DNA of 64,000 nt, from NCBI RefSeq assembly GCF_039977335.1, contig NZ_JBDWDI010000002.1:68122-132121 (forward strand), in the 5' to 3' direction. This stretch comes from Parasphingorhabdus sp. (GTDB lineage Bacteria > Pseudomonadota > Alphaproteobacteria > Sphingomonadales > Sphingomonadaceae). Positions 19,339 to 19,847 of the stretch are shown in pieces. A program made the translations under genes and the position numbers. The notes below the pieces were generated by a model. The model did not search any database. It had not been told where the DNA came from and saw only the letters and a list, made by a program, of their open reading frames with translations. The stretch's first letter is position 1. Each line of letters opens with the position of its first letter.

Positions 19339-19427
19339 GCGGTCGTGGCGGAATTGGTAGACGCGCAGCGTTGAGGTCGCTGTGGGGTTAATACCCCGTG
19401 GAAGTTCGAGTCTTCTCGACCGCACCA
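19339..19427 (+). tRNA. tRNA-Leu(GAG)
   Basis: GCGGTCG/CGACCGC acceptor stem, D-loop with GG, CAGCG-TTGAGGT-CGCTG, long variable arm, TTCGA, encoded CCA; 89 nt. Confidence 0.97.
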
Positions 19428-19527
19428 GTTTTTCTTTTCGTGGCTTCGTTTCACGACAACGAAATAGACCCGTTTCAGAAATATATAGTCAGCATCAGAG
19501 GCGTATCGACAACCAATGGTTTGCAAA

Positions 19528-19612
19528 TGGTGCAGAAGAGGCCTCGAAACTCCACATCCTTGCGAATACTAGCACCTGAAGCTAGCGCGTCTGCTAATAC
19601 CGCCATCTGGGC
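19528..19612 (-). pseudogene. Degenerate tRNA-Leu(CAG)
   Basis: RC reads GCCCAGATGGCGGTATTAGCAGACGCGCTAGCTTCAGGTGCTAGTATTCGCAAGGATGTGGAGTTTCGAGGCCTCTTCTGCACCA: intact anticodon arm (CAG) and CCA, but D-loop GG lost, T-arm altered and 2 nt missing from the acceptor stem. Confidence 0.85.
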
Positions 19613-19847
19613 CAACCGACATGTTGTCGGTGTAGGAGCCGGCGATTGGCGTCACGGGGGCGATATTGTCAATGATTCATCTGCCTATATGGCCGATCTT
19701 ATGTCTGGCAGCGCGCGGTTGCCGGAAATATGCTATAAACGCGCTGGCAATAAAGTGGATTCGGATATTGCGTGCAACGGGCCGGTCATGCAAAAGCGCG
19801 CGGAAAGACGATCACAAACTTTCGTAAAAGAAACGGACATTCAGACT

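Follow-up and report, generated by a model that had tools for sequence, protein, structure and literature searches.

An intact tRNA-Leu(GAG) gene and a tRNA-Leu(CAG)-like element lie on opposite strands, with their 3′ ends facing each other, in the window (the whole stretch of 64,000 nucleotides that was analysed, C2:68122-132121 of the 3.54-Mb, five-contig assembly of a marine Sphingorhabdus with 52.5% G+C). Exactly 100 nt separate the two 3′ ends, in agreement with an earlier note on this DNA, which had given 100 bp. Upstream of the element are a leader and promoter-like motifs, and beyond these an epimerase gene is transcribed in the opposite direction. Coordinates are collected in Table 1. 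An independent assembly, GCA_039981415.1, carries the same region on a contig of 175,861 bp (176,017 bp here), and the two are identical over the 6,948 bp compared, element included.

Table 1. Features at the junction of the two tRNA-Leu loci (positions in the window)
Feature	Position	Strand	Remarks
tRNA-Leu(GAG)	19339-19427	plus	Intact, encoded CCA; ARAGORN; Rfam RF00005, 51.4 bits
Spacer	19428-19527		19428-19448 homologous to the GAG 3′ flank of G006; 19449-19524 unique
Probable tRNA-Leu(CAG) pseudogene	19612-19528	minus	85 nt; alignments to the canonical 87-nt gene
5′ leader	19613..19636	minus	Hairpin CCGACA-ACA-TGTCGG at 19630-19616; kept in relatives with an intact gene
−10-like hexamer GCCAAT	19645..19650	minus	GCTAAT in 5/5 aligned relatives; T→C private to this genome
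−35-like TTGACA	19672-19667	minus	Kept; sequence and alignment with relatives
NAD-dependent epimerase/dehydratase gene	19848..20795	plus, divergent	Pfam PF01370; orthologues in relatives; synteny anchor

Read directly from the window on the minus strand, the letters of the element are GCCCAGATGGCGGTATTAGCAGACGCGCTAGCTTCAGGTGCTAGTATTCGCAAGGATGTGGAGTTTCGAGGCCTCTTCTGCACCA. A blastn-type search aligned it over 80 nt, at 94% identity and with an E value of 2.9e-28, to the canonical tRNA-Leu(CAG) gene of the same genome (C1:c488409-488495), and the resemblance is therefore one of homology rather than chance. Relative to that gene, and in standard numbering, the element carries five substitutions (A14U, G18A, U20C, G53U and U60G) and lacks 2 nt of the GGG run in its 3′ acceptor strand, which reads TCTGC where TCTGGGC is needed. 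Positions 21 to 52 are the same as in the canonical gene, and the encoded CCA is kept. The sequence details reported in the earlier note for this 85-nt element were all present on re-reading, both the undamaged parts (anticodon arm CTAGC-TTCAGGT-GCTAG, variable arm and CCA end) and the damaged ones (the D-loop without GG, the T-arm GGAGT-TTCGAGG-CCTCT and the shortened acceptor 3′ strand).

Residues A14 and G18 and the G53-C61 pair are elements of tertiary structure that are conserved universally in tRNA. The nucleotides A14, G18 and G53 are all changed in the element, and it lacks the 7-bp acceptor stem of a functional tRNA. Because of these three changes together with the broken acceptor stem, it is very unlikely, judging from the sequence, that the element works as a tRNA.

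Searches with tRNA models gave the same picture, and bore out the earlier description of the element as broken. With default settings ARAGORN called a single tRNA in the whole window, the GAG copy, and left the minus-strand element uncalled; it was reported as tRNA-Leu(cag) only when the threshold was lowered to 90% (-ps90). The Rfam tRNA model RF00005, for which the covariance-model threshold is 29 bits, gave no match to the element at E≤10 whether 111 nt or 601 nt were searched, and no other Rfam family matched it. For comparison, the intact CAG copy of this genome scored 54.6 bits and a further copy with one G deleted scored 41.4 bits. The minimum free energy (MFE) fold of the element contained no cloverleaf and did not exceed shuffled sequence in stability (z = 0.00), whereas the MFE fold of the canonical copy was a cloverleaf.

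The earlier note had placed a TTGACA hexamer about 55 nt upstream of the element, and it is found 54 nt upstream. The 16-nt spacing between TTGACA and the second hexamer in Table 1, together with the conservation of the latter, suggests that GCCAAT (GCTAAT in relatives) is the −10 element. A consensus promoter scan did not score the pair as a promoter.

The orthologous locus in related species

Five relatives (G006, G021, L033, L035 and L036) have the divergent epimerase gene, the intergenic region and the TTGACA promoter and leader, followed by an intact 87-nt tRNA-Leu(CAG) gene. An intact tRNA-Leu(CAG) gene also stands at the epimerase locus of L039, which is more distant. When 64 genomes of the genus were searched with 88 nt of promoter and leader only as query, this region was found in 12 other species, and an intact tRNA-Leu(CAG) directly adjoined it in all 12. 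The present genome was the only one of the 64 in which a degenerate gene followed the promoter and leader. The promoter, leader and tRNA sequence of the window are thus orthologous to intact genes in relatives, which upholds the earlier view that the locus is a complete gene, promoter included, rather than an att fragment. Since the intact orthologous gene with its promoter was shown in 12 species, the site of the relic can be identified as the ancestral one.

Two relatives, L037 and L038 (the latter the same genome as G017), have kept the epimerase gene, but in the interval about 130-420 nt before its ATG they carry unrelated AT-rich DNA instead of tRNA-Leu(CAG) and promoter. A maximum likelihood tree was made from 3.9 kb of downstream and flanking DNA, with L039 placed outside. 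The two genomes that lack the gene, L037 and G017, branched near the base, and the present genome was sister (support 88/84) to L033, L034 (Sphingorhabdus sp. EL138, identical with G021), L035 and L036, in all of which the gene is intact. As the outgroup and the sister clade have the intact gene and L037 and G017 have none, the locus is ancestral, and its loss or inactivation has happened more than once. The loss in L037 and G017 is separate from the decay in this genome. The 90% cluster of the epimerase protein had a single member, and so offered no intermediate relatives by which the decay might be dated. Exact-pattern scans of metagenomes for the mutated D-arm and for the leader of this locus gave zero matches.

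The extent of decay was measured in a six-species alignment by counting private changes, that is, sites at which one genome differs and the other five agree. Within the 87 nt of the tRNA, this genome had 5 private substitutions and the 2-nt gap; each relative had none. The 71 nt of promoter and leader contained 4 private substitutions in this genome, the T→C change in the −10-like hexamer and others at 19657, 19652 and 19640, against 0-1 in each relative, so that relaxed constraint extends into the regulatory region. The remaining 164 nt of intergenic spacer had 15 private substitutions and 2 gap columns in this genome, and 1-5 in each relative. On this branch, then, the gene and its control region change at a rate about 60% of that seen in the neighbouring DNA under least constraint. 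Such a rate would be expected of a gene that turned neutral part-way along the branch, and would be unlike that of a maintained RNA gene.

Other tRNA-Leu(CAG) genes and leucine codon use

ARAGORN found 43 tRNAs in the whole genome, including two tRNA-Leu(CAG) genes, both on contig C1. One of these is canonical and the other has lost one G. The earlier note had proposed that a functional CAG copy might exist elsewhere through relocation or island-associated replacement, and the canonical copy at C1:c488409-488495, which has an integrase fragment and a TIR gene as neighbours, is such a copy. The competing proposal, that CUG is read only by wobble with tRNA-Leu(UAG), is not needed. CTG was, as had been noted, very frequent in the coding genes: in 880 long ORFs it was the commonest leucine codon, accounting for 33.5% of leucine codons and 31 per 1000 of all codons. 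The species is left with one canonical gene for CUG, plus tRNA-Leu(UAG). The same ARAGORN run reported a 102-nt 'tRNA-His(atg)' with its anticodon at position 40 (C4:1285936-1286037), which is probably either spurious or one more aberrant sequence resembling a tRNA.

The mature tRNA-Leu(CAG) is nearly invariant in the genus; all copies in the comparison of promoter contexts were identical, and most matches to the tRNA part lay at 97-99% and a few at 88-94%. The gene occurred at one place in 33 of the 35 other genomes with a match. At least three unrelated promoter contexts precede it in the genus, and this genome has all three. The first, type A, is that of the window locus and is shared with the relatives that have the same promoter and leader. 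Type B, the context of the canonical copy at C1:c488409, is common to G010, G017, G049, G008 and G045, and type C, that of the copy at C1:142004, to G051, G053 and G048.

Next to the type-B copy are a fragment of a phage integrase (130 aa), a TIR/ThsB-like protein of 530 aa and an ORF of 391 aa to which Pfam gave no match. These ORFs, with a predicted nucleotide-synthetase-like protein, occupy C1:482500-488408 on the 3′ side of the tRNA, a region that is possibly a defence island with a decayed integrase. No synteny was found when the surroundings of the type-B copy were compared with those of ten relatives. A stretch of about 520 bp nearby (C1 about 488990-489507), overlapping an ORF with a DUF5818 domain, occurs five times in G006. 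G010 and G053 have it too, with 77-85% identity, and it may represent a mobile or repetitive element.

Upstream of the type-C copy (C1:142004-142089, 86 nt), at a distance of 580 nt, is the tRNA-fMet with which an rRNA operon ends. The copy equals the canonical gene minus one G, lost from the GGG run in the 3′ acceptor strand. In ARAGORN it folds only with the acceptor stem shifted into the discriminator base and CCA, and its MFE fold is not a cloverleaf. The same 1-G deletion was found again in GCA_039972115.1. An orphan ORF for a phage terminase small subunit (110 aa, C1:142232-142564; PF05119, E 6e-13) begins 145 nt beyond the 3′ end of this tRNA, between it and a large AAA/TPR/LuxR-type regulator, and is probably left over from a prophage.

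The junction with tRNA-Leu(GAG)

The two tRNA-Leu genes that are neighbours in the window are far apart in relatives, about 220 kb in G006 and about 83 kb in G021, and their relative orientation there is opposite to that found here. Homology to the relatives stops within a few bases past each CCA, the exception being about 20 nt of GAG 3′ flank in common with G006. The 76 nt at 19449-19524 had no match in the genome itself or in the loci fetched from relatives, and a scan of the spacer revealed no terminator-like site. Beyond the 3′ end of the CAG gene, G006 and G021 have species-specific accessory genes with no orthologues here, and their DNA 3′ of the GAG gene maps to two different places on C4 of this genome. 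The 3′ flanks of both tRNAs therefore differ among this genome, G006 and G021, and both 3′ ends appear as hot spots of rearrangement or insertion.

A simple inversion bounded by the two tRNA 3′ ends was considered. The orientations in G006 and G021 fit such an event, but no single inversion could be reconstructed, because the GAG flanks of these two genomes hit two places on C4. A whole-genome search for partial repeats of tRNA-Leu(CAG) or tRNA-Leu(GAG) yielded none, only the three CAG loci and the D-arm that leucine tRNAs share. The adjacency of the GAG and CAG loci presumably arose by rearrangement, or by loss of an island, at tRNA 3′ ends. The spacer itself may be what a deleted island left behind, as the earlier note had suggested, or may stem from an inversion or translocation.

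Origin of the element

The element is very probably a non-functional tRNA-Leu(CAG) pseudogene at its apparent ancestral locus, the relic of a gene that had become redundant. It is homologous to a functional tRNA of its own genome, and relatives have an intact gene at the orthologous site. The ancestral gene would have stood upstream of, and divergent from, the epimerase gene. Two further tRNA-Leu(CAG) genes in other promoter contexts, one of them canonical, would have made this copy redundant, so that selection on both RNA and promoter could relax. Substitutions at A14, G18 and G53, the 2-nt deletion that breaks the acceptor stem and the changes in the −10 region would then have accumulated. 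In this scheme redundancy would have come before decay, and the product of the element would be neither processed nor charged. The earlier note had itself remarked that an intact duplicate elsewhere would reduce the element to a simple relic, and the copy at C1:c488409-488495 is such a duplicate. Two observations go against decay of this kind. The lesions are somewhat non-random (rough p ~0.05): they spare the anticodon arm, the variable arm and CCA, and of the five substitutions three fall on universal nucleotides. Moreover, the full-length element is still undeleted, and bacteria tend to lose dead DNA.

Pseudogenes of tRNA are a recognised class in bacterial annotation and surveys (PMC8450103, PMC9858662). 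The element resembles the members of this class in being a tRNA-derived locus with a destroyed structure and a sub-threshold score, in a genome with functional isodecoders elsewhere (PMC8450103, PMC9858662). It differs from them in that an intact orthologue with its promoter was found in 12 related species, and in scoring too low for an ARAGORN call at default settings and for any match to the Rfam tRNA model. It is a further instance of the class, with an unusually clear evolutionary context and no new principle. The locus should be annotated as a tRNA-Leu(CAG) pseudogene, which default tRNA finders overlook.

Beyond annotation the element has little significance, other than as a neat case of tRNA gene turnover. 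Redundant gene copies are gained and lost as tRNA gene sets turn over, a general concept in discussions of copy number (PMC9858662). The likeness here lies in three loci of one isoacceptor in three promoter contexts, each common to different species. The difference is that two of the three copies are visibly damaged, and the genome therefore offers a snapshot of turnover under way and not of a finished replacement. The ancestral locus and its promoter are decaying in one species and have been deleted in L037 and G017, and the leucine codon used most is left with a single canonical gene, in what is now a mosaic, island-like stretch. Rearrangement in this genus has hot spots at the 3′ ends of both tRNA-Leu genes.

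The first lesion might have been made by a mobile element, although this is unlikely. On that account an island that targets tRNA genes would have entered the 3′ end, or left it by imprecise excision, and so replaced or damaged the acceptor strand there, GGG becoming G; its later loss or rearrangement would have left the 100-bp spacer, and the other substitutions would be ordinary decay that followed. Such a first hit would complement the pseudogene reading and does not compete with it. It would fit the loss of homology with relatives a few bases past CCA and the accessory genes, without orthologues here, that flank the 3′ end in G006 and G021. It would also fit the copy at C1:142004, with its loss of 1 nt from the same GGG run and the orphan terminase ORF 145 nt downstream, and the integrase fragment that adjoins the intact CAG copy. 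However, neither an integrase nor an island remnant lies near the window locus, the genome contains no displaced partial tRNA 3′ ends, and the spacer is without matches. Slippage in a 3-nt homopolymer accounts equally well for both deletions, and the D-loop changes are outside the usual att region. It is also possible to see one recurring mechanism, the action of tRNA-targeting mobile elements, in the 1-nt and 2-nt deletions in the GGG run at two of the three CAG loci, both at post-CCA breakpoints, but we consider this distinctly improbable. If it were true, mobile elements would inactivate tRNA genes by replacing or damaging their 3′ ends on integration or excision, and would thereby drive the relocation of isoacceptors within the genus.

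The borders of islands and prophages carry tRNA fragments, att duplications left by tRNA-targeting integrases. The element shares with these a breakpoint immediately after CCA and damage to the 3′ acceptor strand, and the other CAG copies lie beside an integrase fragment and a terminase gene. Unlike them, it spans the whole gene and is no partial repeat of a 3′ end; 5′ half, promoter and leader are all present, and it has no adjacent integrase or island and no matching repeat elsewhere. An att-site fragment at an island border was accordingly rejected; the neighbouring tRNA is, in addition, a different isoacceptor.

Less probable again than such recurring damage by mobile elements is continued transcription of the relic as a tRNA-like RNA. 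That the element has been kept as a functional tRNA-like non-coding RNA (ncRNA), a decoy or regulator transcribed from the TTGACA promoter and using the anticodon and variable arms, is highly unlikely. The −35 hexamer, leader hairpin, anticodon arm, variable arm and CCA are indeed all intact, and the element persists at full length, identical in the second assembly. Against this, an otherwise near-invariant promoter and leader have acquired four private changes, one of them in GCTAAT, and the predicted fold is as stable as that of shuffles. The variant occurs in no other species, the 12 species with this promoter and leader all carrying a normal tRNA; no metagenome contig contained it, and no Rfam family was matched. 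The earlier suggestion of survival as a tRNA-like ncRNA is, with the −10 region decayed, left unsupported.

That the differences are assembly or sequencing errors in what is really a normal tRNA-Leu(CAG) gene is scarcely credible: the deletion does sit in a short homopolymer, but an independent assembly is identical over the 6,948 bp compared, five substitutions clustered in 85 nt are atypical of consensus error, the adjacent promoter and spacer show equal or higher private divergence, and the flanking genes are intact.

The exact epimerase protein encoded beside the element was found on 14 contigs in public assemblies, that of GCA_039981415.1 among them. Its reading frame is open for 150 codons upstream of the ATG at 19848 (19398-19847), across the pseudogene, and for this reason a naive list of open reading frames shows an ORF of 465 aa. 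The long ORF 19398-20795 was rejected as a gene, being an artefact of the open upstream frame; the gene call in the other assembly starts at the ATG at 19848.
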